This document shows, one piece after another, positions 4,708-61,952 of a DNA stretch of 64,000 nucleotides (positions within the stretch are counted from its first letter, which is position 1; each line of letters starts with the position of its first letter). Location: NCBI GenBank assembly GCA_025999395.1, contig AP024682.1:173638-237637 (forward strand), read 5' to 3'. The notes below the pieces were generated by a model. The model searched no databases. It was not told the DNA's origin and was given only the letters and a program-made list of their open reading frames with translations. A program made the position numbers and the translations under genes. This DNA comes from Candidatus Parcubacteria bacterium (GTDB taxonomy: Bacteria; Patescibacteriota; Minisyncoccia; UBA6257; JAGOQP01).

Positions 4708-5355
4708 ATGTCTCGAACAAAAAAGAAAGCTACTAATTTTGATGTGGAAGAAGACTACACTAGCCAGCTTATTCCGATGGTAGTGGAAAAATCTCCCTAC
4801 GGAGAAAGGGCTTACGATATTTATTCCCGTCTTCTTAAGGAAAGAATAATTTTTCTTGGCGGTCCGATTACTGATGCCTTGGCTAACTCAGTGATTGCTC
4901 AACTTTTGCTTTTAAATCACGAAGATTCCAAAAAAGACATTTTGATCTACATTAATAGCCCCGGAGGATCAGTGACTGCTGGGTTAGCTATTTATGACAC
5001 CATGCAACATGTTAAGCCCGATGTTTCTACAATTTGTGTAGGAATGGCGGCTTCGATGGCGGCGGTACTTTTGGCAGCAGGGAAAAAAGGAAAAAGATTT
5101 GCCTTGCCAAATTCAGAGATTTTACTTCATCAAGTAATGGGAGGTGCCGAAGGACAAGCAACCGAAATAGAAATCACCGCCAAGCAAATTATAAAAATCA
5201 AGGAAAAAATTAATCAGATTTTAGCTAAACACACTGGCCAATCGGTAAGTAAAATAGAAAAGGATACTGATCGGGATTTTTACTTGAGTGCTTCGGAGGC
5301 GAAAGACTACGGAATTATCGACGAGATTATTAAACCCGCTAAAGGAGGAAAATAA
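4708..5355 (+). CDS. clpP: ATP-dependent Clp protease proteolytic subunit ClpP
   Basis: [31 protein letters not shown] (Ser), HQVMGG (His) catalytic-triad context typical of ClpP. Confidence 0.9.
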
Positions 5356-14029: not shown

Positions 14030-14209
14030 CTTTAAAGAAAGGGGGCTGGCTTTATTCCGGTTTCTTTTAAATTTTGAAGTTCTCATCATTCTAGCTTACA
14101 TACCTTGTAACATCTAATTTTATTTCTCGTTTTACTTTTTTAGAACCGAAAATTATTGAGGTTTATTGAACGGAAGGCTTCGATTGACTTAGTTTTTCAC
14201 AGTAAGAAG

Positions 14210-14237
14210 TTGACAGAAATTTATATTGGTTTAGAAT
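14210..14237 (+). promoter_or_regulatory. strong sigma70-like promoter TTGACA-N16-TAGAAT
   Basis: TTGACA 14210-14215, TAGAAT 14232-14237, in 670-bp ORF-free region upstream of giant surface protein gene. Confidence 0.5.
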
Positions 14238-14242
14238 GGAAA

Positions 14243-14498
14243 ATACACGGGAAGGTAATTCTTGGACGAACTGGATGAGTGATTCAGAAATGAGAGTTGT
14301 AAATTTATTCAGCTTTAACTAACTTCAGAAACAAGATGACAAGATAATAGGTTCTGTTCTCTTCTTTTTGAAAGGGTTTTGAAGATCAAAAAGAAGGGAA
14401 GGTGAGGCGGAACCAAAATTTTTTCCAAGGTTTCTTGGAGAAAAATAAATTAAACTTGTGTTTTCGCCTCACTTTCAAAAAGTGAGTTTTTGTTTTTA
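14243..14498 (+). promoter_or_regulatory. about 255-nt structured leader / candidate ncRNA ending in intrinsic terminator with an alternative upstream pairing (GTGAGGCG 14402-14409 vs CGCCTCAC 14465-14472 vs terminator stem CTCACTT/AAGTGAG + T-run 14487-14498)
   Basis: promoter-to-terminator unit with no ORF; mutually exclusive stems suggest attenuator/riboswitch-like control of downstream 14704 gene. Confidence 0.35.
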
Positions 14499-14703
14499 GA
14501 GAGTCGGATTGTTCTTTAAAAATTACCATTAATTAATGAAATAAGAGTTCTCTTTACTTATTTGCTTGCTGATTCGTCTTAACCGATGAAGCAGCAGGTC
14601 GATAATAAGTAAGCGAGAACTGTCGGGAAGTTTTTCCTTAGCTTCAAGCTAAGGGAATCATTAAAAAATTTTAATTAAAAGTAAATAAATTAAATTCCGA
14701 AAA

Positions 14704-39414: not shown

Positions 39415-42400
39415 ATGTTTAAAATGGTTTTTATGCTAATCAACTTAAAATCTTTTAACCCTTCGGAGGTTGAAGAAAAAGTTCTTCAATTCTGGAAGGA
39501 AAAAAATATCTTTCAAAAAACTTTAAATCCCAAGGGGAAAAAGAAAAAATTCTTTCATTTTTGGGAGGGCCCTCCTTACGCTAATGGACGGCCGGGAATT
39601 CATCATGTTTTGGCTAGAGTGTTTAAAGATGTTTTTTTGCGTTACAAAACGATGCAGGGGTTTATAGTTCCCAGAAAAGCTGGTTGGGATACTCACGGTC
39701 TTCCTATTGAAATTGAAGCAGAAAAAGATTTTGGAGTTAGCTCTAAAGTGGAGATAGAAAAAATAGGAATTGATCGTTTTAATCAAAAAGCCAAAGAAAT
39801 TGTTTTCCGGTGTAAGGATGAGTTTGAAAAAATGACTGAACGAATTGGTTACTGGTTGGATTTAAAAAATGCCTATGTAACTTACTCTCCGGATTTTATT
39901 GAAAGTTTGTGGTGGGTGTTTAAAAGAATTTATGAGAGAGGTTATTTGAAAGAGCTTTACCGAGTAGTTCCTTATTGTCCGCGATGTCAAACTCCTTTAT
40001 CTAATCACGAACTGGGTCAGCCGGGAGTTTATAAAAGCGTTCCCGATCCTTCTTTGTTTGTAAAATTTCCTTTGGCAGGAAAAGAAAACGAATTTCTTTT
40101 GGTTTGGACCACTACTCCCTGGACTTTGCCGGCGAATGTTGCAGTGGCAGTGTTACCGGAAGGAGATTATGTAAAGTACAAAGTTGGCCAAGACTATCTC
40201 TGGATGCTTGAAGGGGCACCTTTTTTGAGAGAGAAATTTGAATTAGAGGAAGTGGAAAGAAAAAAAGGAAAAGAAATGGCTGGCTGGAAATATCAACCGC
40301 TTTATCCTTTAAAACAAAAAATTAATTTACCAATTGAGCCTTACAGCGTCCTTTTAGCAGATTTTGTTTCAATGGAAGAAGGGACAGGATTGGTTCATAT
40401 TGCTCCCACTTTCGGGGAAGATGACTTTAATTTAGTTTTTGCTCAGGGAATTAAAGAAAATCATCATCTGCCCCACACCGTTGAGGATGATGGAACGATG
40501 GCTAAAGAAGTAATTGGAGAAGGGCTGCCGATAAAAGAAGCTGATAAAGTAATTCTTCAGGATTTAGAAAAAAGGGGATTAGTTTTATTGGTGGATAAGA
40601 TAGAGCACGAATATCCTCACTGTTGGCGTTGTTCTTCTCCCTTGATTTATTTTGCTAAAAAGTCTTGGTTTTTTGAGGTTTCTCGCTTAAGAAAAGAATT
40701 AGTAGAAGCTAATCAAAAAATAAACTGGTACCCTGAATATCTAAAAGAAGGAAGATTTGGAAATTGGATCGCCGAAGCCAAAGATTGGTCTATTTCTCGC
40801 GATCGCTTTTGGGGGACGCCTCTCCCAATTTGGCGTTGTCAGAAATGCCAAAAGTTAACAGTAGTAGGAAGTTTTCAGGAATTATTTTCCTTACAACCCC
40901 ACGAAGAACCAAATAAATATTTTCTTCTTCGTCACGGAGAGGCGGAAAGTAATATTAAACAAATTGTTGATGCTGATCCTAAAAACAAAGACAGGGTTGG
41001 TTTAACTTCAAAAGGGAAAAAACAAGCTCAGCAGGTAGCCAAAAAGTTAAAAAAGGAAGGAGTTGATTTAATTTTTTCCTCTGATTTTCGAAGAACTCGA
41101 GAAACAGCTGAAATTATTGCCAAGGAATTAGGCATCAAAAAGGTTATTTTTGATGAGCGCTTAAGAGAAATTAATGTGGGAATCTTTCACGGGCATAATG
41201 TCCAAGATTATCACACTTACTTTCCTTCTTATCAGGATAAGTTTCAAAAACAGCCGGAGAAGGGAGAAAGTCTAAAAGATGTTTCTAAAAGAGTTTGGGA
41301 TTTTGTTAAAGAGGTGGAAAAGAAATATCACGGCAAAAAAATTTTGATAGTTAGTCACGAGTATCCTTTGTGGATGCTTTATTCGGTGATTAAGGGTTTG
41401 TGGCAGGAGCGCTCGATTCGGGAAAAAGAAGAAAGGGGTAATGATTTCTTAAAGCCAGCCCAATTTGAAGTAGTTGATTTTGCTTTAGTGCCGCGAGATG
41501 AGTGGGGAATGGCTGACTATCATCGCCCTTATGTAGATAAGATTTCGCTTAAGTGTCAGCATTGCGGATCTTTAGCTAATAGGATTTCTGATGTAGCGGA
41601 TGTTTGGTTTGATTCAGGAGCAATGCCTTATGCTCAAGAACATTGGCCTTTTTCTAAGATAAAAGAAGGATCATCGATTTCTGATTTTGATAAAAAATCT
41701 CTTAAAAAACCGGATCGTTTTCCAGCCGATTTTATTTGTGAAGGAATTGATCAAACAAGAGGCTGGTTTTACACTCTTTTAGCAACCGCGGTGCTTTTGG
41801 GAATGGGTACTCCTTACAAAAATGTGGTTTCTTTGGGATTGGTTTTAGATAAATATGGTCAAAAAATGTCAAAATCTCGCGGTAATGTAGTCGATCCTTG
41901 GTCGGTTATCAATAAGTTTGGAATCGATGCGGTGCGCTGGTATTTTTATTCAATTAATTCTCCAGCTGAGCCTAAAAACTTTGATGAAGAAGAAATAAAA
42001 AATTCCTTAAGAAGGTTACTGATGCTGGTTTACAATTCCTTTGCTTTTCTTCAGCTTTATGGGCAAAGGCGCCTACCTTTAGAAAAAACTCCTTCTTTAA
42101 AAAATCCCTTAGATCAATGGATTCTTTTGCGTCTTAGCCAAACCGCTTTAGCGGTTGAAGAAAGAATGGATAATTATGATGTTTTAAAATCAACTCAGTT
42201 AATTGAAGAGTTGGTGGATGATTTGTCTCGTTGGTATATTCGCCGCTCGCGAAGAAGATTTCAAAAACCAGATTTAGATTCTTTACAAGGAAAGAAGGAT
42301 TATCAAAATGCTTCTTGGGTGTTGGCTTTCGTTCTTTTAAATCTTTCTAAGTTGTTGGCTCCGTTTATTCCTTTCTTTGCCGAAGCTCTTTATCAATCTC

Positions 42401-42990
42401 TAAAGAAGCTTTATCGATTTAAGAGTCAGGATTCAGTTCATTTGGAAGAGTGGCCTTCTTTTTCCCGCCCCTCTCGTAAAGAAGCAAAGCTTTTAGAAGA
42501 AATGTCCAAGATAAGAAATTTGGCATCATTAGTTTTGGCTAAAAGAATAGAGGTAAAAATTAAAGTTAAACAACCCTTATCGGTTTTGAGAATAAAGAAT
42601 CCAGATTTATGGGTAGACAATCCCGGACTTTTGAAAATTTTAGCTGAAGAAGTAAATGTTAAAGAAGTAGTGTTTGATAAAGAAATTAATCAGGATTTTG
42701 AATTGGACACCACCATCACTCCCGAATTAAAAACCGAAGGAATTCTAAGAGAATTATCAAGAAATATTCAAGACTTAAGACAAGAAGCTGGCTGTCTTCC
42801 TAAGGATAAAATTAATCTCTGGTTTGAAGGTGATAAAAATCTTTTAAGTTTGGTAGAAAATAATCTTTCTTGGATAAAAGAAGAAGTGAGCGCTAAAAAT
42901 ATAAGATTTGAGCGCTCAGCAAAGGTAACTGCTCAAATGGAAACCAAGATTGATAATCAAAGAATTTGGATTGGCCTTGAGGTAGTTTAG
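39415..42990 (+). CDS. ileS: isoleucyl-tRNA synthetase with an inserted histidine-phosphatase (phosphoglycerate-mutase-like) domain
   Basis: HIGH region PPYANGRPGIHHVLARV, CP1 editing domain (TTPWTLPAN), Zn knuckles YCPRCQ / HCWRC, KMSKS (GQKMSKSRGN); about 190-aa insert (nt 40915-41490) with RHG (LLRHGEAESN), RRTRETAE, REINVGIFHG, IVSHEYP motifs between CQKCQK and CQHCGS. Confidence 0.85.
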   Translation: MFKMVFMLINLKSFNPSEVEEKVLQFWKEKNIFQKTLNPKGKKKKFFHFWEGPPYANGRPGIHHVLARVFKDVFLRYKTMQGFIVPRKAGWDTHGLPIEIEAEKDFGVSSKVEIEKIGIDRFNQKAKEIVFRCKDEFEKMTERIGYWLDLKNAYVTYSPDFIESLWWVFKRIYERGYLKELYRVVPYCPRCQTPLSNHELGQPGVYKSVPDPSLFVKFPLAGKENEFLLVWTTTPWTLPANVAVAVLPEGDYVKYKVGQDYLWMLEGAPFLREKFELEEVERKKGKEMAGWKYQPLYPLKQKINLPIEPYSVLLADFVSMEEGTGLVHIAPTFGEDDFNLVFAQGIKENHHLPHTVEDDGTMAKEVIGEGLPIKEADKVILQDLEKRGLVLLVDKIEHEYPHCWRCSSPLIYFAKKSWFFEVSRLRKELVEANQKINWYPEYLKEGRFGNWIAEAKDWSISRDRFWGTPLPIWRCQKCQKLTVVGSFQELFSLQPHEEPNKYFLLRHGEAESNIKQIVDADPKNKDRVGLTSKGKKQAQQVAKKLKKEGVDLIFSSDFRRTRETAEIIAKELGIKKVIFDERLREINVGIFHGHNVQDYHTYFPSYQDKFQKQPEKGESLKDVSKRVWDFVKEVEKKYHGKKILIVSHEYPLWMLYSVIKGLWQERSIREKEERGNDFLKPAQFEVVDFALVPRDEWGMADYHRPYVDKISLKCQHCGSLANRISDVADVWFDSGAMPYAQEHWPFSKIKEGSSISDFDKKSLKKPDRFPADFICEGIDQTRGWFYTLLATAVLLGMGTPYKNVVSLGLVLDKYGQKMSKSRGNVVDPWSVINKFGIDAVRWYFYSINSPAEPKNFDEEEIKNSLRRLLMLVYNSFAFLQLYGQRRLPLEKTPSLKNPLDQWILLRLSQTALAVEERMDNYDVLKSTQLIEELVDDLSRWYIRRSRRRFQKPDLDSLQGKKDYQNASWVLAFVLLNLSKLLAPFIPFFAEALYQSLKKLYRFKSQDSVHLEEWPSFSRPSRKEAKLLEEMSKIRNLASLVLAKRIEVKIKVKQPLSVLRIKNPDLWVDNPGLLKILAEEVNVKEVVFDKEINQDFELDTTITPELKTEGILRELSRNIQDLRQEAGCLPKDKINLWFEGDKNLLSLVENNLSWIKEEVSAKNIRFERSAKVTAQMETKIDNQRIWIGLEVV

Positions 42991-51421: not shown

Positions 51422-52944
51422 TTTTTACTTTGAAATTATTTTTTGTTGTTTTTATGTTTTTTGAGAGAAATTTTACTATTGAAAAATATCGGCAGGGAAT
51501 TTTGAAGAGAGAATTTTCTCTAACTCAAGCAATTGAAGCTTTTTTTGATTATTTGAAGGAGAAAGATAAAGATTTAGGAGCTTTTTTGGAAATTTTCGAA
51601 AGTGCGGGGAAAAATCAAGCGCGAGTATTAGATAAAAAACTTTCTCAGCTTTCTGAAAAAGAGCGTGCTAATCTTTCTCCTCTTTTTGGAGTGCCTTTGG
51701 CGATTAAGGATAATATTTTAATTGCTGGTTTTAAAACTACCGCCGCTTCCAAAATTTTAGCCAATTACATCGCCTCTTATGATGCAACAGTAATTAAAAA
51801 ACTTAAAAAGGAAGAGGTTATTTTTTTGGGAAAAACTAATTTAGATGAATTTGCGATGGGCGCTTCCACTGAATATTCAGCCTTTAAAAAAACAAGAAAT
51901 CCTTATGACTTATCTAAAGTACCGGGAGGCTCTTCGGGAGGGTCTGCGGTGGCGGTAGCGGCTAATATGGCTTTAGGAGCTTTGGGATCAGATACGGGTG
52001 GCTCAATTAGACAGCCAGCTTCTTTTTGTGGAGTGGTGGGATTAAAGCCAAGCTATGGGGCGGTTTCTCGCTACGGTTTGATTGCCTTAGCTTCGAGTTT
52101 AGATCAGATTGGTCCTTTTGCCAAAACAGTGGCAGATGTCGCTTTAATTTTTAAAGCGATTGCTGGTTTTGATGATTTTGATTCCACTTCGGTTAAGGTT
52201 GATTGGTCGAGGGTTGATGAGTATGAACCCTCTGCGGCAAAAAAATTAAAAATTGGAGTTCCTAAGGAATATTTTGTCGAAGGAATGGAAGAGGAGGTGA
52301 AAGAAGCGGTAATGAAAGTGGTTGAAAAGTTTAAAGCTGATGGATTTGAAATAAAAGAAATTTCTTTGCCTCATACTCAGTACGCTGTTTCTTGCTACTA
52401 TATTATTTTGCCTGCGGAAGCCAGCGCTAATTTGGCGCGTTATGATGGATTGCGTTATTCTCCAGTGGCTGAACTGAAAACTGAAAACTTAAGTTTGTGG
52501 GATTATTATTTAAAGCAAAGAAGTGTTGGTATTGGCGATGAACCAAGGCGGCGAATTTTGTTAGGGAACTTTGTTCTTTCTTCAGGGTATTATGATGCTT
52601 ATTATGCTAAAGCCCAAAAGGTGCGTCGTTTAATTTTGAATGATTTTGAAAATGTTTTTCAAAAAGGAAAAGACGGAGTGGATGTTATTTTAGCTCCGGT
52701 GTCTCCCACCAAAGCTTTTGAAATTGGTGCTAAAGCCGATGATCCCTTGGCGATGTATTTGGCTGATATTTTTACCATTCCTGCTAACTTAGCTGGACTT
52801 TGCGCTCTTTCTTTGCCAGCTGAAAATCCTCAAAACTTTAGCAAAGAAAATATGCCGGTTAATTTTCAATTAATCGGCCGTCGATTTGAAGAAAAAAACA
52901 TCCTTAATTTAGGAAGATATTTCGAAGAAGAATTAAGAGACTAA
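51418..52944 (+). CDS. gatA: Glu-tRNA(Gln)/Asp-tRNA(Asn) amidotransferase subunit A (amidase signature)
   Basis: amidase signature GGSSGGSAVAVAANMALGALGSDTGGSIRQPASFCGVVGLKPSYG; start may be ATG 51454 rather than 51418. Confidence 0.85.
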   Translation: MIFTLKLFFVVFMFFERNFTIEKYRQGILKREFSLTQAIEAFFDYLKEKDKDLGAFLEIFESAGKNQARVLDKKLSQLSEKERANLSPLFGVPLAIKDNILIAGFKTTAASKILANYIASYDATVIKKLKKEEVIFLGKTNLDEFAMGASTEYSAFKKTRNPYDLSKVPGGSSGGSAVAVAANMALGALGSDTGGSIRQPASFCGVVGLKPSYGAVSRYGLIALASSLDQIGPFAKTVADVALIFKAIAGFDDFDSTSVKVDWSRVDEYEPSAAKKLKIGVPKEYFVEGMEEEVKEAVMKVVEKFKADGFEIKEISLPHTQYAVSCYYIILPAEASANLARYDGLRYSPVAELKTENLSLWDYYLKQRSVGIGDEPRRRILLGNFVLSSGYYDAYYAKAQKVRRLILNDFENVFQKGKDGVDVILAPVSPTKAFEIGAKADDPLAMYLADIFTIPANLAGLCALSLPAENPQNFSKENMPVNFQLIGRRFEEKNILNLGRYFEEELRD

Positions 52945-52952
52945 TTATTTTG

Positions 52953-53026
52953 CGCGGCCGACCGGACTTGAACCGGCAACCCCCGCCGTGACAGGGCGGT
53001 GCTCTGACCAATTGAGCTACGACCGC
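52953..53026 (-). tRNA. tRNA-Asp (GTC)
   Basis: GCGGTCG-TA-GCTC-AATTGGTCA-GAGC-A-CCGCC-CTGTCAC-GGCGG-GGGTT-GCCGG-TTCAAGT-CCGGT-CGGCCGC-G; 74 nt, no encoded CCA. Confidence 0.85.
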
Positions 53027-53248
53027 TTAGAACCTCCACTGAAAATGTGAAGTGTGAAAATGGAGGTGTGTTGCGTGCTGTATGTGCTGTAGTGTGTGCT
53101 GTAGTTAAGTAAGGATGTTTTTTGACGACCCGGCGGGGTTGGACCGCTTCCTCTTTTTAGTTTTTTATGAGGTTTTTCGGGTCGCTTTTGTATTCTATTA
53201 AAAGAGAATTAAAAGTCAAGAAAAATTTTGGAGAAAAGATTGATTTTG

Positions 53249-53320
53249 TTGCGGGGGAGGGATTTGCACCCTCGATCTCCTGGTTATGAGCCAGGCGAGA
53301 TACTACTTCTCCACCCCGCT
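53249..53320 (-). tRNA. tRNA-Met (CAT), initiator-like (unpaired A1:A72, A11)
   Basis: AGCGGGG-TG-GAGA-AGTAGTA-TCTC-G-CCTGG-CTCATAA-CCAGG-AGATC-GAGGG-TGCAAAT-CCCTC-CCCCGCA-A; aligns closely to bacterial tRNA-fMet. Confidence 0.8.
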
Positions 53321-53346
53321 ATCTTACTATTGAAAAGTCGGCTTTC

Positions 53347-53375
53347 ATTCTATATTTTTTTATTGTTTTTGTCAA
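53347..53375 (-). promoter_or_regulatory. minus-strand sigma70-like promoter TTGACA-N17-TAGAAT driving tRNA-Met
   Basis: rc of 53370-53375 = TTGACA, rc of 53347-53352 = TAGAAT; about 26 nt upstream of tRNA 5' end. Confidence 0.5.
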
Positions 53376-53380
53376 TTCTT

Positions 53381-53410
53381 TAAAAAGAAAAAAGCCGCTT
53401 TTGCGGCTTG
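53381..53410 (-). terminator. minus-strand rho-independent terminator immediately upstream of the tRNA promoter
   Basis: minus strand reads caagccgc-aaaa-gcggctt followed by TTTTTTCTTTTT. Confidence 0.5.
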
Positions 53411-53460
53411 GGTGTACTTTTTGTTGTGTGTGGTAAGTGTGCGATGAAACGCAATGAGAC

Positions 53461-53556
53461 GGTTGCGGCGCGGTCGGTTTGTTTCTTTGTTTCTTTTGTT
53501 TTTTTAACTAAACTAACTAATTATAGTAAGTATATAAAAGGGACCGCGCCGCAACC
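53461..53556. repeat. 15-bp perfect GC-rich inverted repeat (GGTTGCGGCGCGGTC / GACCGCGCCGCAACC) enclosing 66-nt AT-rich loop
   Basis: seen directly; GC-rich stems in AT-rich intergenic DNA; MITE-like or structured RNA. Confidence 0.7.
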
Positions 53557-53723
53557 AGTGTAATAATAGCATATTTAAAAATAAAGTCAAGTGCAGGCAG
53601 TTGTTATAAAAACCGATTTTCTTTAGTTTCACTCAATGGTGTTTTGGTTAATAGTATTTTGTGCGGTGCTTTTTTCAAAATAAAATCCGCCTCTAAGGCG
53701 GAAAGAGTGCTGATATAATAAAT

Positions 53724-53858
53724 GGATGCGGTGTACACTAAAGATGGGCTTTTTTGACGGGACCCCCCTTTGTCTGTTGCTGGGGGGCGAAAGTTGGCTG
53801 GAAAAAATGGACAAAAGTGGACAAGTGGACAAAAAAGATGGGAGTGTACACCGCATCC
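53724..53858. repeat. 16-bp perfect inverted repeat (GGATGCGGTGTACACT / AGTGTACACCGCATCC) enclosing 103 nt with internal C6/G6 hairpin, AAAGATGGG direct repeats and triple TGGACAA tandem array
   Basis: seen directly; 53808-53832 tggacaaaa-gtggacaa-gtggacaaa; left arm shares GG(A/T)TGCGG(C/T)G with the 53461 element. Confidence 0.7.
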
Positions 53859-53957
53859 GCGTCTCTTATCTTAAGAAAAACACTTTTTATTTTATAAGTC
53901 AAGTTTATTTTTGTCTTTATTTCTGTTAAAATCCTTTTAATTTTTTAACTGGTTTTT

Positions 53958-54395
53958 ATGACCAAAAAAAGAAAAGAAGAAATTTTAAAAGAAATCGTTG
54001 AATACTCTCAAAAATTCGTTGGTGTTCCTTATAAATACGGAGCAAAAATGGAAGAGGCGCCTCATTTTTTTGATTGCTCAAGTTTTGTTAAATATGTTTA
54101 TGAGCAATTTGGTTTTTTCCTTCCCCGAAGCACCATTCTTCAAGCTGAATTTTTAAGAAAAACAGTTAAAAGTTTAGATGATTTAAGAGAGGGAGATTTA
54201 CTTTATCTTCATGGTACTCGAGGCTATTACACCAAAAAGTTTCCTCAAGGAATTGGCCATGTAGCAATTTATCTTGGTGATGGAAAGGTTATTCACGCTG
54301 ATGGAAGCAGCAAAAAGCCGGGGGTAAAAATTGAAAAAATGGAAAAAGTTATAGAAAGAAAAAAGCCACTTGTTGTTATTAAAAGAGTGGTTTAG
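53958..54395 (+). CDS. NlpC/P60-family cell-wall peptidase
   Basis: catalytic Cys (FDCSSFVKYVYEQFG) and His (IGHVAIYLGDGKVIHA) in NlpC/P60 arrangement. Confidence 0.75.
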   Translation: MTKKRKEEILKEIVEYSQKFVGVPYKYGAKMEEAPHFFDCSSFVKYVYEQFGFFLPRSTILQAEFLRKTVKSLDDLREGDLLYLHGTRGYYTKKFPQGIGHVAIYLGDGKVIHADGSSKKPGVKIEKMEKVIERKKPLVVIKRVV

Positions 54396-54492
54396 ATTTT
54401 GGCCTTTTAAAGTTTTTTATTATTTTTAGGGTTTGATTTTTTTATTTTAACCTCTTGAAGAGCTTGTTTTTAAAAGCTATACTTCCAAAAAC

Positions 54493-55860: not shown

Positions 55861-55990
55861 TTTTTTTATTGGTTTACGCCTTCTTTTTTATATTTATACT
55901 TAAACAAATACAGTATTGACTTAAAAATTATTTCTTATAATAATAATTATTGAAGCCGAGAGATTGGCTCTCGGCATAGCACATTAACAA
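55558..55990 (+). repeat. 433-bp direct repeat copy 1 (gene + promoter/5'UTR), 1 mismatch vs copy 2 at 58796..59228
   Basis: nucleotide identity from the ATG through ...ctctcggca[t/c]agcacattaacaa; both copies followed after about 22 divergent nt by shared CCCCAGAAAGGAGGTGAGA RBS block. Confidence 0.9.
55916..55944 (+). promoter_or_regulatory. promoter-like TTGACT ... TATAAT/AATAAT plus 8-bp perfect hairpin (gccgagag-attgg-ctctcggc) in the 5'UTR of peptide gene A; same in copy 2
   Basis: TTGACT 55916-55921, TATAAT 55936-55941 (14-nt spacer) or AATAAT with 17-nt spacer. Confidence 0.35.
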
Positions 55991-56034: not shown

Positions 56035-56187
56035 ATGGCTCGCAGAAAAACATCTAGAATTCTCCGTGCTATTCGTCGAGAGGTGAAGAAGGAGAAAAAG
56101 CTTCATTTCAAGATTCGAATTACACCTGGTTGCAGCGAACTGAATTGCAGTACTTACTGCTCTGATCATGAGGATGCTGATCACTAA
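56035..56187 (+). CDS. 50-aa Cys-rich peptide A (putative RiPP precursor): basic leader + C-terminal core ITPGCSELNCSTYCSDHEDADH
   Basis: ATG 56035 nine nt after GGAGGTGA; MARRKTSRILRAIRREVKKEKKLHFKIRITPGCSELNCSTYCSDHEDADH; stop TAA 56185; below ORF-track size cutoff; directly upstream of rSAM/SPASM gene. Confidence 0.55.
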   Translation: MARRKTSRILRAIRREVKKEKKLHFKIRITPGCSELNCSTYCSDHEDADH

Positions 56188-56203: not shown

Positions 56204-56242
56204 GGGGGCGTAGTTGTCTTTTTTTAAAACAACTGCGCCCCC
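56204..56242 (+). promoter_or_regulatory. 14-bp stem-loop (GGGGGCGTAGTTGT / ACAACTGCGCCCCC) between peptide A and the radical SAM gene; no T-run
   Basis: one G.U pair, 10-11-nt loop; typical position of the processing/attenuator hairpin that sets precursor:enzyme stoichiometry in RiPP operons. Confidence 0.5.
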
Positions 56243-56276
56243 ACCGTATTTGTGCGAAGATGTAAGGAGGTGTAGG

Positions 56277-57359
56277 ATGAGAAAAAAGATGACAGTTATG
56301 ATATTACCGGTGGGATTAAGTTGTAACATGGCCTGTAAGTATTGTTATCACGATGGCAGGCCGCGTGTGAACGAGAAGCAAAGCAGAATGTCAGTTGATT
56401 TATTAAGAAAGTTGATTAAAGACAGCGCAGAATTAGCCAGTGATATTGATTTTGTTTGGCATGGAGGAGAACCGCTTCTTGCTGGAATGGAACACTTTAA
56501 GACCGCCATTGATATTCAAAGGAAGACTTGTTTTTCGGGGCGAGTCAGAAACATCATTCAAACCAATGGGGTTCTTTTGAATAAATCTTGGTGTCGATTT
56601 CTTTCGCTGAATCATTTCATAATAAGTACAAGTCTTGATGGTCCTGCAGAAATCAATGATGCAAATCGTCTTTTATTAGGAGGTGGAAAAACCTATCATC
56701 GTGTTGCAAGAGCGGTTCGATTATGGAAGCAAACCGGTAATCAAATGGGAGCTGTTGCTCTAGTAACCAGAACAAATGTAAGGTATCCTGCAGAAACGTA
56801 CAGAGGCTTGAAAAGAGTAGGTTTTAAGAGTTGTGCTTTTCACGTCTGTTCTCAAAATGATGATCAATCTGTTGATCTTGTACCCTCTGCTGAAGAAGCG
56901 GCTTATTTTCTTAAGTCGGTTTTTGATTTGTGGTTCGAGGAGGATGATCCCACGTTTTTAATTCGCAACTTTAGGAATGTTTTGAGAGTGTTGTGTGGGG
57001 GAGTAACAATTGATTGTGCCTCTCGTGTTGATGGTTGTTGGGGATTTATAGCCGTTACTGCTAACGGAGATGTTTATCCTTGTCATCGATTTGTCAACAG
57101 AACCAATTTTCGATTAGGAAATATATTAGAAGAAAGCCTCTCGGCTCTCTATAAGAAAGGATATTCACTTTACAGAGCGATGTGTTCTCTACCCGAAGAG
57201 TGTGAGCGGTGTGAATGGATAAATGTTTGCGGTGGGGGATGTGCATACGAACGTATCGTGGTTAATGGTTCTTTTCAAAGTATTCACCCAGCTTGTGAGG
57301 TAAAAAAAGAACTTTTTGCTCACATAAAAATCAAAACAAACGAGCTCATAAAGAAGTAA
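56277..57359 (+). CDS. radical SAM enzyme with C-terminal SPASM domain (anSME / peptide-maturase family)
   Basis: ATG 56277 with RBS AAGGAGG (track ORF extends upstream to 56214); CNMACKYCYHDG (CxxxCxxC), HGGEPLL, C-terminal CHRFVN...CERCEWINVCGGGCAYE auxiliary-cluster motif. Confidence 0.8.
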   Translation: MRKKMTVMILPVGLSCNMACKYCYHDGRPRVNEKQSRMSVDLLRKLIKDSAELASDIDFVWHGGEPLLAGMEHFKTAIDIQRKTCFSGRVRNIIQTNGVLLNKSWCRFLSLNHFIISTSLDGPAEINDANRLLLGGGKTYHRVARAVRLWKQTGNQMGAVALVTRTNVRYPAETYRGLKRVGFKSCAFHVCSQNDDQSVDLVPSAEEAAYFLKSVFDLWFEEDDPTFLIRNFRNVLRVLCGGVTIDCASRVDGCWGFIAVTANGDVYPCHRFVNRTNFRLGNILEESLSALYKKGYSLYRAMCSLPEECERCEWINVCGGGCAYERIVVNGSFQSIHPACEVKKELFAHIKIKTNELIKK

Positions 57360-60281: not shown

Positions 60282-60357
60282 GCTTTTATTATGTTCTTCG
60301 CACTTTAATTTATATAATTATTTATACAAATACAACTATATTATATCAAGTATAATC

Positions 60358-60386
60358 GCGGGGCGGAAAACGCTGTTCCGCCCCGC
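60358..60386 (-). terminator. 11-bp perfect GC hairpin (gcggggcggaa / ttccgccccgc) just downstream of minus-strand ORF 60392..60658
   Basis: seen in sequence; trailing U-tract on minus strand is weak. Confidence 0.35.
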
Positions 60387-60391
60387 ACGAG

Positions 60392-60658
60392 TTACGCAAA
60401 AGGATGCGGGAATTTAGTGATGTTTGCGTATGAAAGGCTAACTCCTCCAAACTCGTAAGCTATTGTGTATAGCCTCTCTACTCCTCCTGGTTCTTGTCGG
60501 TAGCCAAATGTCATTGGTACTATTCCAGTGACAATGGATCGGATGATGTGTAGGTTGCCATTCTCGCTGTATTTGTCCGAGAGGAATCGAGGGAGTAGTC
60601 TTTCGATTATACTATTGACTTTTTTTAATGTGATTGGTATAATTTGGGCATCGCACAT
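60392..60658 (-). CDS. hypothetical 88-aa protein
   Basis: ORF only; no motif. Confidence 0.25.
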   Translation of the reverse strand: MCDAQIIPITLKKVNSIIERLLPRFLSDKYSENGNLHIIRSIVTGIVPMTFGYRQEPGGVERLYTIAYEFGGVSLSYANITKFPHPFA

Positions 60659-60791
60659 TGAAAATTTTTATTCGCTTCCGATACTACTGAATTGTTGGTC
60701 TTACGGGGTTTTTGAATCTAAGTTTTTCTTGGGTTTAAAAACCCCGTAAGACCTGAACCTTTTAAAGGCAGGCAGGGAAAAGGAGGCAGCC

Positions 60792-61952
60792 ATGAACCGC
60801 AAATGTTTTGGCGTGTTTATTGTTATGGCGGTTCTTGCCGCCATAACAAATCAAGCGGAGCCGGCGGCATCTTCACCTTCTGAAAGTGTTTCGAGCATAA
60901 TAACGCTTGAAGCGAACAGCATGTCTCGTGCTGGCTACGGTGCGGTGGAAGCTAACTACTGGATGGACCAACTCGGATTTACTCGAGATCCGGCCGTTAT
61001 CCAAGATGCCATGGATAGATACTACATGTTTGCTCCAGAAGGAATGCCGAGGCGTTGGGGTGATGGTTGGCTTAGCAAATTCGTTGCTAGTTTGCTAGCG
61101 ATTAGGGCGTGGGATATTCGCGACAAGCTGACAGAACCTCAAAAGTCCCAGCTCAATGAAATCCTTACAGATGCGATTCGGGAGGAAACATTTCGACTGG
61201 ATATGACTTGTGGTATCGACCCTTGGAATTCCTGCTCCGAAGACTTCGTTTCTTACTTAGCCCTACTTTCTCGGGTAAAGAACCTTTATCCTACTGTTGC
61301 AGAAAAAGCTGGAATCGGTTATGTGAGTAGTTTGGAGCGAAAATACTTAGAACTCACCTTTTCTACAGATAAAGGTTACTACTCGCTGGTTCGCGAACAA
61401 ACTCAAGATGGTATGCGGGTGTTGATGCACAACCATGGAGAGCAATCAGCGGTTTACACGGGCCTGCTTTTAATCTATTTAAACCACACTCTGCGAGCTT
61501 ACTCTTTAGCAAACAATCCTCTGCCCGACTATTTTTGCCAGGACTGGTTGATGGCCAACATCCGGGACATGTTTGAGTGGCTTCAATCGGTTTCGACTTC
61601 TGATGGGCTCTCCTTTTTAAACAGTTGTCTAAACGCTGAAGGCAATTTAGTCTCCTGCTCTGATATGAAGGTAGCTAATGCTGTTCCTAGAGTCGTACCT
61701 GCTGGTCGCCTGATGGTGAATTTAGTAACGAGCGGCGTTTTCAAGACGGAGGAGATCTTTTCTCTCCACGAATACCATTACCGCTTCTTTGATATAACTT
61801 ACAACGGCGGCAACATTTCAAACAATGGTCGACGCGCTGATTACAATTTGGATAATCAGGAGTTCGAGGTTCTGTGGGAAAACCCCTGCCACCTCTCTTC
61901 TCATCATTCGCTGAGACAACCACGCAGACACCTTCGCTCTGTTGATAAATGA
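60792..61952 (+). CDS. secreted protein of unknown function, paralog A (GC-rich copy)
   Basis: signal peptide MNRKCFGVFIVMAVLAAITNQA; shares blocks AVEANYW, GWLSKFVAS, FRLD.TCGIDPWNSCSEDFVS.LAL..RVKN.YP, NHGEQSAVY..LLLIYLNH with 62156 gene; GC3-rich codons unlike neighbours. Confidence 0.5.
   Translation: MNRKCFGVFIVMAVLAAITNQAEPAASSPSESVSSIITLEANSMSRAGYGAVEANYWMDQLGFTRDPAVIQDAMDRYYMFAPEGMPRRWGDGWLSKFVASLLAIRAWDIRDKLTEPQKSQLNEILTDAIREETFRLDMTCGIDPWNSCSEDFVSYLALLSRVKNLYPTVAEKAGIGYVSSLERKYLELTFSTDKGYYSLVREQTQDGMRVLMHNHGEQSAVYTGLLLIYLNHTLRAYSLANNPLPDYFCQDWLMANIRDMFEWLQSVSTSDGLSFLNSCLNAEGNLVSCSDMKVANAVPRVVPAGRLMVNLVTSGVFKTEEIFSLHEYHYRFFDITYNGGNISNNGRRADYNLDNQEFEVLWENPCHLSSHHSLRQPRRHLRSVDK

Follow-up and report, generated by a model that had tools for sequence, protein, structure and literature searches.

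Two long inverted repeats upstream of an NlpC/P60 gene

The longest non-coding stretch in the analyzed window (the whole 64,000-nt segment of Candidatus Parcubacteria bacterium contig AP024682.1, positions 173,638 to 237,637) is a gap of 1013 bp at positions 52945-53957, which carries two tRNA genes and two long perfect inverted repeats, termed E1 and E2, and runs up to the start of a gene encoding an NlpC/P60 peptidase. We tentatively propose, with somewhat less than even confidence, that E1 and E2 function at the RNA level as 5'-terminal clamp helices, one on a ~175-nt small RNA and the other on the NlpC/P60 leader. The GC content of the gap is 0.40 (most gaps show 0.24-0.35), which places it among the most GC-rich gaps of a window with 32-45% GC, ~86% coding and 14% intergenic sequence, and genes mostly on the plus strand. 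Its flanking genes are gatCA, enolase, NlpC/P60, TPR fragments, and a radical-SAM gene. The NlpC/P60 protein has a 100% identical counterpart in Candidatus Parcubacteria bacterium KatS3mg098 (genome of ~560 kb), and the genome is described as 36% GC. The source publication gives Katase hot-spring sediment at 52 °C as the origin of the KatS3 metagenome-assembled genomes (PMC9671151).

The two elements and the features inside E2 are:

53461-53556, no strand assigned: E1 inverted repeat, arms 53461-53475 and 53542-53556, 15/15 complementary, 66-nt AT-rich interior
53724-53858, plus strand: E2 inverted repeat, arms 53724-53739 and 53843-53858, 16/16 complementary, 103-nt interior
53740-53748, plus strand: direct repeat AAAGATGGG, copy 1, abutting the E2 left arm
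53834-53842, plus strand: direct repeat AAAGATGGG, copy 2, abutting the E2 right arm
53763-53787, plus strand: hairpin inside E2 with C6 (53763-53768), a 13-nt loop, and G6 (53782-53787)
53807-53832, plus strand: three RTGGACAA units in E2, starting at 53807, 53817, and 53825 (spacing of 10 and 8)

An earlier note on this DNA, made from the sequence alone, had described E1 as 15-bp perfect stems around a 66-nt AT loop and E2 as 16-bp stems around a 103-nt interior holding the C6/G6 hairpin, the AAAGATGGG repeats, and the RTGGACAA triplet. The E1 arms were verified as fully complementary, all of the E2 features are present, and the start GG(A/T)TGCGG(C/T)G that the note assigned to both left arms is correct: the exact 10-mer GGWTGCGGYG occurs in the window in the four arms only. 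E1 spans 96 bp, with pairing that extends to 20 nt at 90%, and E2 spans 135 bp. Markov-1 simulations predict 0.07 perfect inverted repeats per 64 kb with arms of 15 nt or more and loops up to 250 nt, compared to six observed, namely three short-loop terminators, one hairpin in a 5' untranslated region (UTR; 60697-60753), E1, and E2. Among these six, the loop exceeds 60 nt in E1 and E2 only. E1 and E2 are real and non-random, with arms far beyond chance. Two open reading frames (ORFs) that overlap the palindrome (53629..53856 and 53726..53929) had been judged spurious, and we agree: they have no Pfam match, neither a collection of 15 billion proteins nor the public contigs of the species list them as genes, and they start inside the arms, which explains their identical first peptide, MRCTL.

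Transcription signals around the elements

The signals next to the elements, and the gene to the right of E2, are:

53563-53590, minus strand: E1 promoter TTGACT-16(TGc)-TATTAT, by promoter pattern, its -10 box ending 7 nt before the first G of the stem
53382-53409, minus strand: intrinsic terminator AAGCCGCAAAAGCGGCUU followed by U6 (hairpin 53392-53409), by folding the predicted 3' end of the E1 RNA
53382-53557, minus strand: predicted E1 small RNA of ~175 nt, from promoter/terminator bracketing (fold z = -7.7)
53711-53719, plus strand: perfect extended -10 promoter TGATATAAT, ending 5 nt before the first G of the E2 stem
53686-53702, minus strand: GC-rich hairpin UCCGCCUUAGAGGCGGA followed by UUUUAUUUU, terminator-like on the minus strand only, overlapping the -35 position of the E2(+) promoter
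53958-54395, plus strand: NlpC/P60 (C40) peptidase gene (Pfam PF00877, E = 9e-20; homologues), likely the cargo of an E2-led transcript

The E1 promoter belongs to the same class as the promoters of both tRNA genes on the minus strand. The pattern TTGAC(A/T)-N16-18-TAnnnT is found 13 times in the window, 7 of these being intergenic (~7-fold enrichment in the 14% of the sequence that lies between genes), and three of the seven are the E1 promoter and the two tRNA promoters. Similarly, all six TGnTATAAT sites of the window, including the one before E2, are intergenic. The E1 terminator is strong and lies 51 nt past the stem. It had been assigned to tRNA-Met; a terminator is indeed present there, but in the direction of transcription it precedes the tRNA-Met promoter (53375..53347), indicating that it closes the E1 unit rather than that of the tRNA. 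E1(-) thus shows what is expected of a small RNA gene, i.e. its own promoter and an intrinsic terminator around a non-coding unit.

For E2 this arrangement is partial, with either a plus-strand promoter and no terminator, or a weak minus-strand promoter and a terminator. We found no plus-strand terminator between E2 and the NlpC/P60 start, and E2 is predicted to form the 5' end of the NlpC/P60 mRNA leader. The hairpin at 53686-53702 may terminate antisense transcripts or represent a palindrome of the operator kind. Because of this minus-strand terminator and of weaker minus-strand promoters to the right of E2, an antisense RNA of E2 is possible.

Folding and known RNA families

Both whole elements fold far better than shuffled sequences (z of -4.8 to -7.7), and most of the fold stability of each comes from its arms. 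The 103-nt interior of E2 alone is no better than shuffles (z of +0.7 for the plus and -0.6 for the minus strand), and the A/U-rich interior of E1 is mostly unpaired in the predicted fold, suggesting that the elements are clamps around open loops and not compact riboswitch-like folds. The earlier note had considered a structured non-coding RNA on the minus strand, ending at 53381-53410. This is supported for E1, with its promoter 7 nt from the stem and its strong terminator, whereas for E2 the best promoter evidence, TGATATAAT, is on the plus strand; the term structured was an overstatement, given the folding of the E2 interior. Perfect stems of 15-17 bp are usual among the RNA hairpins of this genome, and GC-rich stems at most ~10 nt from a predicted start site are also present on the nusA leader and on the mRNA of a precursor resembling those of ribosomally synthesized and post-translationally modified peptides (RiPPs).

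The Rfam scan proposed in the note detected no family other than tRNAs in the region, both at the gathering threshold and at E ≤ 10, and the search of the whole window detected tRNAs and tmRNA. The best other matches were to miRNA-hairpin models, with 17-23 bits against thresholds of 75-119. Known Rfam families (riboswitches, 6S, SRP, RNase P, ribozymes, and Y RNA) were rejected, as no model other than that of tRNAs came near its gathering threshold.

Similarity of E1 and E2, and possible protein-binding sites

When E1 is read on the minus strand and E2 on the plus strand, the elements share a 5' GGWUGCGGYG and a 3' CCGCAWCC followed by CGUCUC. Their arms are identical at 9 of 15 positions, and each of the six differences is compensated in the partner arm. 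The 8 in-register matches out of 10 (p of roughly 0.002-0.012, by our own estimate) are no more than suggestive of a common sequence origin. A comparison in all four orientations revealed no similarity past the termini, and the interiors are unrelated. If E1 and E2 are paralogues, the compensation of all six arm differences would be evidence for selection on pairing; this compensation is seen solely between E1 and E2 themselves, i.e. between two putative paralogues.

Shared ends would also be expected if the elements were protein sites at the DNA level, either four GGWTGCGG operators at the +1 position of divergent promoters, or a TGGACAA cluster acting as iterons or DnaA boxes. We consider such sites very unlikely. 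One arm of each element does span +1 to +10 of a promoter, GTGTACAC in the E2 arm is itself palindromic, and TGGACAA half-sites recur in a 44-bp palindrome at the syntenic spot of a relative (L189). In addition, TTGTCCAC resembles the actinobacterial DnaA box, TTGTCCACA. However, arm positions 11-16 differ between E1 and E2 while complementarity is perfect within each, which favors pairing over a protein site common to both, and the 8-bp spacing is off-phase for tandem binding. Triple TGGACAA arrays are also frequent in unrelated DNA, with more than 120 unrelated tandem repeats on viral contigs of IMG/VR, which made the triplet search uninformative.

The array resembling iterons or DnaA boxes that the note had entertained was not borne out. 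No TTATCCACA box with at most one mismatch is present in 53027-53957, and the window contains 15 such boxes compared to 14 expected by chance. The nearby dnaA gene or GC-skew inflection that was to be looked for was not found either: the cumulative skew rises monotonically, the skew being positive at 50-58 kb, and neither DnaA nor DnaN is among the 28 window ORFs put through Pfam (14 larger ORFs, located at 6.5-33.7 kb in the window, are outside this set). An oriC or DnaA array was rejected on these three grounds. Chromosomal origins with DnaA clusters and plasmid iterons resemble this region in having short direct repeats beside an AT-rich segment, but here the boxes are at least 2 positions off the consensus, their spacing is irregular, and there is neither a skew inflection nor a dnaA or rep gene among the annotated ORFs. 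The only perfect TTATCCACA of the window is a single box at 302-310, in the AT-rich gap 1-458, upstream of a mechanosensitive-channel-like gene and nusA, with no dnaA nearby.

Strains, relatives, and the origin of the elements

Five Logan assemblies of the species match the window at 100% across the covered parts of 52.9-54.4 kb, except for 3-4 single-nucleotide polymorphisms at the NlpC/P60 3' end and an indel of 1.3 kb beside tRNA-Met(+). The indel lies between the NlpC/P60 stop and tRNA-Met(+) (window 54399-54487; L001 10443-11827). Its boundaries are common to L001, L002, and L003, the window and L004 have no insertion, and the polymorphisms cluster at the junction. The insertion of L001 and L002 encodes a 408-aa protein with a weak Peptidase_M16_C match, and that of L003 has other ORFs, of 188 and 148 aa.

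Outside the species, the nearest NlpC/P60 homologues show 53-68% identity. None of the syntenic loci of eight relatives contains repeats like E1 or E2, although the neighborhood is kept in a shuffled order (gatC, gatA, a ~162-aa ORF, two tRNA-Met genes, serS, NlpC/P60, and tRNA-Asp). In the relatives L006, L009, L013, L191, and L193, NlpC/P60 begins 35-175 nt past a tRNA-Met gene on the same strand, so that it probably rides on the tRNA promoter. In the species under study, tRNA-Met(33) points away from NlpC/P60, this tRNA linkage has been lost, and the space is taken up by E2 and its promoter. The locus is rearrangement-prone: the order of the tRNA genes varies among the relatives, some of which have free-standing homing-endonuclease genes (LAGLIDADG or GIY-YIG). 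In L189 (4550-4826), the 3' end of tRNA-Asp (ATCCCCTACGGTCCGCAGAA) is duplicated 154 bp downstream, resembling the att sites of an integrated-element remnant. The palindrome of the same locus (4783-4826), perfect over its 44 bp and containing the TGGACAA half-sites, has the ends TTTGTCCAGG and CCTGGACAAA. No att-like duplication of a tRNA fragment was found in the window.

In such a tRNA hotspot, the elements could be palindromes derived from miniature inverted-repeat transposable elements (MITEs) of the Correia/ERIC/RUP kind or from other mobile elements, with related GGWTGCGGYG termini, their transcription being incidental or co-opted. We regard this origin as unlikely. With 96 and 135 bp, perfect terminal repeats of 15-16 bp, and no coding sequence, E1 and E2 have the terminal repeats, the size (50-500 bp), and the non-coding nature of MITEs. 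The sharing of the outermost 10 bp, together with different inner arms and interiors, is the usual picture for distinct MITEs mobilized by a single transposase, and the AAAGATGGG repeats that bracket the E2 interior resemble a 9-bp duplication. The strain indel, the shuffled tRNA genes, the homing endonucleases, and the att-like tRNA-Asp duplication agree with a hotspot. On the other hand, neither element has a target-site duplication (the flanks are GAGAC and AGTGT for E1, TAAAT and GCGTC for E2), no transposase is nearby, and both elements start exactly at the predicted +1 of a strong promoter, a double coincidence that would be unlikely for insertions.

The search for other copies of the arms, which the earlier note had called for, could be carried out for part of the genome. 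It covered ~68 kb, or roughly 12% of the genome (the 64 kb of the window and 4 kb gained via a flanking protein), and extended to representative genomes, metagenomes, and viral and plasmid records. The pattern required both 15-nt arms, allowing E1/E2 hybrids, and an interior of 51-111 nt. In the window, this pattern and the arm 10-mer with one mismatch each retrieved E1 and E2 only. Among 185,579 GTDB representative genomes, there were 50 matches, all of them outside Patescibacteria; 48 are single-strand matches and the other two correspond to a Hydrogenophaga-specific 23-bp repeat. The scan did not return the locus of the window itself, indicating that the genome of this species is not in the representative collection. 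JGI metagenomes gave 49 matches, all on contigs of 53-77% GC, the E2 arm gave five single-arm chance matches in IMG/VR, and blastn against phage and plasmid records gave none. No further copy was obtained from any of these sources, and a widespread MITE family is excluded; a small species-private family remains compatible with the results. Correia, ERIC, and RUP elements that are transcribed into mRNA hairpins resemble E1 and E2 in their ~100-150 bp, terminal inverted repeats, intergenic location, and presence in 5' UTRs, but they occur in tens to hundreds of copies with target-site duplications, whereas E1 and E2 are two dissimilar single copies with no such duplication and with no further copy in the collections searched. 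MITE-like insertion, one of the identities suggested in the note, is therefore unsupported so far. The Hydrogenophaga repeat (L059 1193-1287 and L062 3871-3965) is a GC-rich inverted repeat of 23 bp found in both of two Hydrogenophaga genomes, CTCGCGGATGCGGTGCGCTCTGC ... GCAGAGCGCACCGCATCCGCGAG. It starts with the E2-type GGATGCGGTG by coincidence and is probably an unrelated element of the repetitive extragenic palindromic type.

Alternatively, E1 and E2 may be functionless, neutral young palindromes, by-products of template switching or inverted duplication formed when the locus was rearranged, with loss of the ancestral ~162-aa ORF and of serS and a reversed orientation of NlpC/P60 with respect to the tRNA genes. 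Their restriction to a single species, with relatives keeping the neighborhood, and their perfect arms, as young repeats would have, are consistent with this view, as is the interior with no excess of structure. The third GTGGACAA unit of E2 with AAAAGATGGG is also 83% identical to the left-arm/loop junction GTGTACACTAAAGATGGG (family D9), suggesting local duplication. Nevertheless, a streamlined 560-kb genome with ~86% coding sequence rarely retains 640 bp of junk, and two independent palindromes would have acquired the same first 10 nt, each at a strong promoter and one with a strong terminator after it. Moreover, tblastn detected no remnant of the lost ~162-aa ORF and serS, nor of LAGLIDADG or GIY-YIG genes, in the region. 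Neutrality is thus rather improbable in our judgment.

Finally, short segments enclosed by perfect inverted repeats, with a promoter on one side and a cell-wall gene on the other, recall invertons, for which the leader switch of Clostridioides difficile cwpV served as a model. A recombinase would flip the 66-bp or 103-bp interior and cause phase variation of NlpC/P60 or of the small RNA; TATAAT-like boxes within the E1 interior would fit such a switch. We find this scarcely credible, because a single orientation is seen at 100% identity in the window and in the L001, L002, and L004 assemblies for both elements, and in the L003 assembly for E2. No recombinase is among the 28 ORFs put through Pfam, neither orientation creates an obvious terminator, and known invertible switches are longer than these segments.

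Predicted clamp helices on two divergent transcripts

In the clamp-helix reading that we favor, two divergent transcripts would arise from back-to-back promoters, each with a perfect GC-rich clamp helix at its extreme 5' end. E1 would be an independent small RNA of ~175 nt on the minus strand, with, in order, the promoter, a 15-bp clamp around the 66-nt A/U-rich loop, a CA-rich single-stranded tail, and the intrinsic terminator. E2 would make up the initial 135 nt of the leader on the plus-strand NlpC/P60 mRNA. The base-paired 5' terminus would most plausibly protect the RNA against 5'-end-dependent decay at 52 °C, and the clamp may present a largely unstructured loop to a partner, that of E2 containing three UGGACAA repeats. 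The repeats, the promoter and terminator signals with their positions, the unstructured interior, and the absence of the elements elsewhere are observations, whereas transcription, its strand, stabilization, and any loop partner are inferred.

Several points weigh against this reading. Common outer ends combined with unrelated interiors are the pattern of transposon ends or operator sites and not of paralogous RNAs. There is no conservation, as both elements are absent from relatives with 53-68% NlpC/P60 identity and the strains are 100% identical. The minus-strand terminator at 53686-53702 is more in line with an antisense RNA of E2 than with a plus-strand leader. No Shine-Dalgarno sequence precedes the NlpC/P60 start, and the gene may have a proximal promoter of its own, which would make E2 separable from it.

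The closest known systems are 5'-terminal stem-loop stabilizers, such as those of the Escherichia coli ompA and Bacillus subtilis aprE leaders and the ermC-type hairpins, to which E1 and E2 appear similar by analogy in having a GC-rich helix a few nucleotides from the predicted start. Those stabilizers are short local hairpins, whereas the helices of E1 and E2 close loops of 66 or 103 nt. E1(-) also resembles small RNA genes that run from promoter to terminator with a C/A-rich seed, in its strong promoter, 5' structure, unpaired CA-rich stretch, and intrinsic terminator, but unlike these it has no homologue or Rfam family. The c-di-AMP (ydaO) riboswitch upstream of NlpC/P60-type hydrolases is similar to E2 in its long leader and closing P1-like helix; E2 differs by the lack of an Rfam match even at E ≤ 10 and by an interior without excess structure.

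A more elaborate version, which we hold to be quite improbable, is that E1 and E2 are two paralogous clamp-and-loop RNAs with a shared terminal helix, GGWUGCGG/CCGCAWCC, which one factor would recognize, while the open loops (the three UGGACAA repeats of E2 and an A-rich tract of E1) would titrate or recruit an RNA-binding regulator. If true, a bacterium that is ultra-small and probably episymbiotic would couple a small RNA to cell-wall hydrolase expression, through a lineage-specific regulatory module with no described counterpart.

More generally, E1, if expressed, would add a candidate small RNA to a genome of roughly 560 kb, and E2 would show how a cell-wall hydrolase gene that lost its ancestral place next to a tRNA gene came to have a new promoter and leader. 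The elements would be unconserved examples of a familiar kind in a poorly studied lineage. A literature search on regulatory RNAs in Patescibacteria (bacteria of the Candidate Phyla Radiation) returned nothing relevant and no account of elements like E1 and E2 in these bacteria, and the field appears almost unexplored. The practical value is modest, as these are orphan elements of a single species.

Neighboring and other features of the window

To the left of E1, the gap contains the following features:

52952-53026, minus strand: tRNA-Asp(GTC) (ARAGORN; Rfam tRNA, 68.6 bits)
53040-53105, no strand assigned: TG-rich low-complexity tract (CA-rich on the minus strand) with short tandem repeats (Tandem Repeats Finder, 53040-53070, 53075-53096, and 53083-53105)
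53132-53165, plus strand: terminator-like hairpin and T-run, a possible end of the gatCA transcript
53192-53219, minus strand: promoter-like TTGACT-16-TAGAAT upstream of the tRNA-Asp leader, by promoter pattern
53248-53320, minus strand: tRNA-Met(CAT) (ARAGORN; Rfam)
53347-53375, minus strand: tRNA-Met promoter TTGACA-17-TAGAAT, 11/12 match, by promoter pattern

The two tRNA genes reported in the earlier note are present, both on the minus strand, tRNA-Asp being located just left of the position (53027) at which its description began. The TG-rich repeats between them were confirmed by Tandem Repeats Finder and include TGTGCTGTAGTG in 1.9 copies at 100% identity. Judging from the promoter at 53219..53192, the tract is predicted to fall within the 5' leader of the tRNA-Asp precursor. 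An inverted repeat of 17 nt (16/17 matches; 52893-52909 and 53107-53123) flanks a segment made up of the final 35 nt of gatA, tRNA-Asp, and the TG-rich tract, and could pair the 5' leader of this precursor with its 3' trailer.

Elsewhere in the window, the nusA promoter (1211-1265) is followed at ~+3 by an 8-bp GC-rich hairpin (GGAUCCGC...GCGGAUCC), which predicts another transcript that begins with a stem. The 674-bp gap at 14030-14703 contains a strong promoter-like TTGACA...TAGAAT (14210-14237) ~470 nt before the next long ORF, and could harbor an unannotated small gene, a long leader, or a non-coding RNA. At 39415-42990, we found a class-I aminoacyl-tRNA synthetase of 1191 aa, IleRS-like by its domains, which appears to hold an inserted histidine-phosphatase domain (His_Phos_1, residues 503-663).

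To the right of NlpC/P60, the segment 55916-57359 shows a promoter, a 5' hairpin (55955-55975), and an AAGGAGG ribosome-binding site before an ORF of 50 aa (56036-56187). Its product, MARRKTSRILRAIRREVKKEKKLHFKIRITPGCSELNCSTYCSDHEDADH, has a Cys-rich C-terminus and is encoded directly upstream of a radical-SAM/SPASM gene (56214-57359); the two look like a RiPP precursor/maturase pair. The GC-rich non-coding gap at 60282-60791 (510 bp) carries a hairpin, GCGGGGCGGAAAACGCTGTTCCGCCCCGC (60358-60387), 9 nt from a minus-strand TGATATAAT box, a layout that matches the hairpin before the E2 promoter. The 5'-UTR hairpin at 60697-60753, a perfect stem of 17 bp, precedes the gene at 60792.

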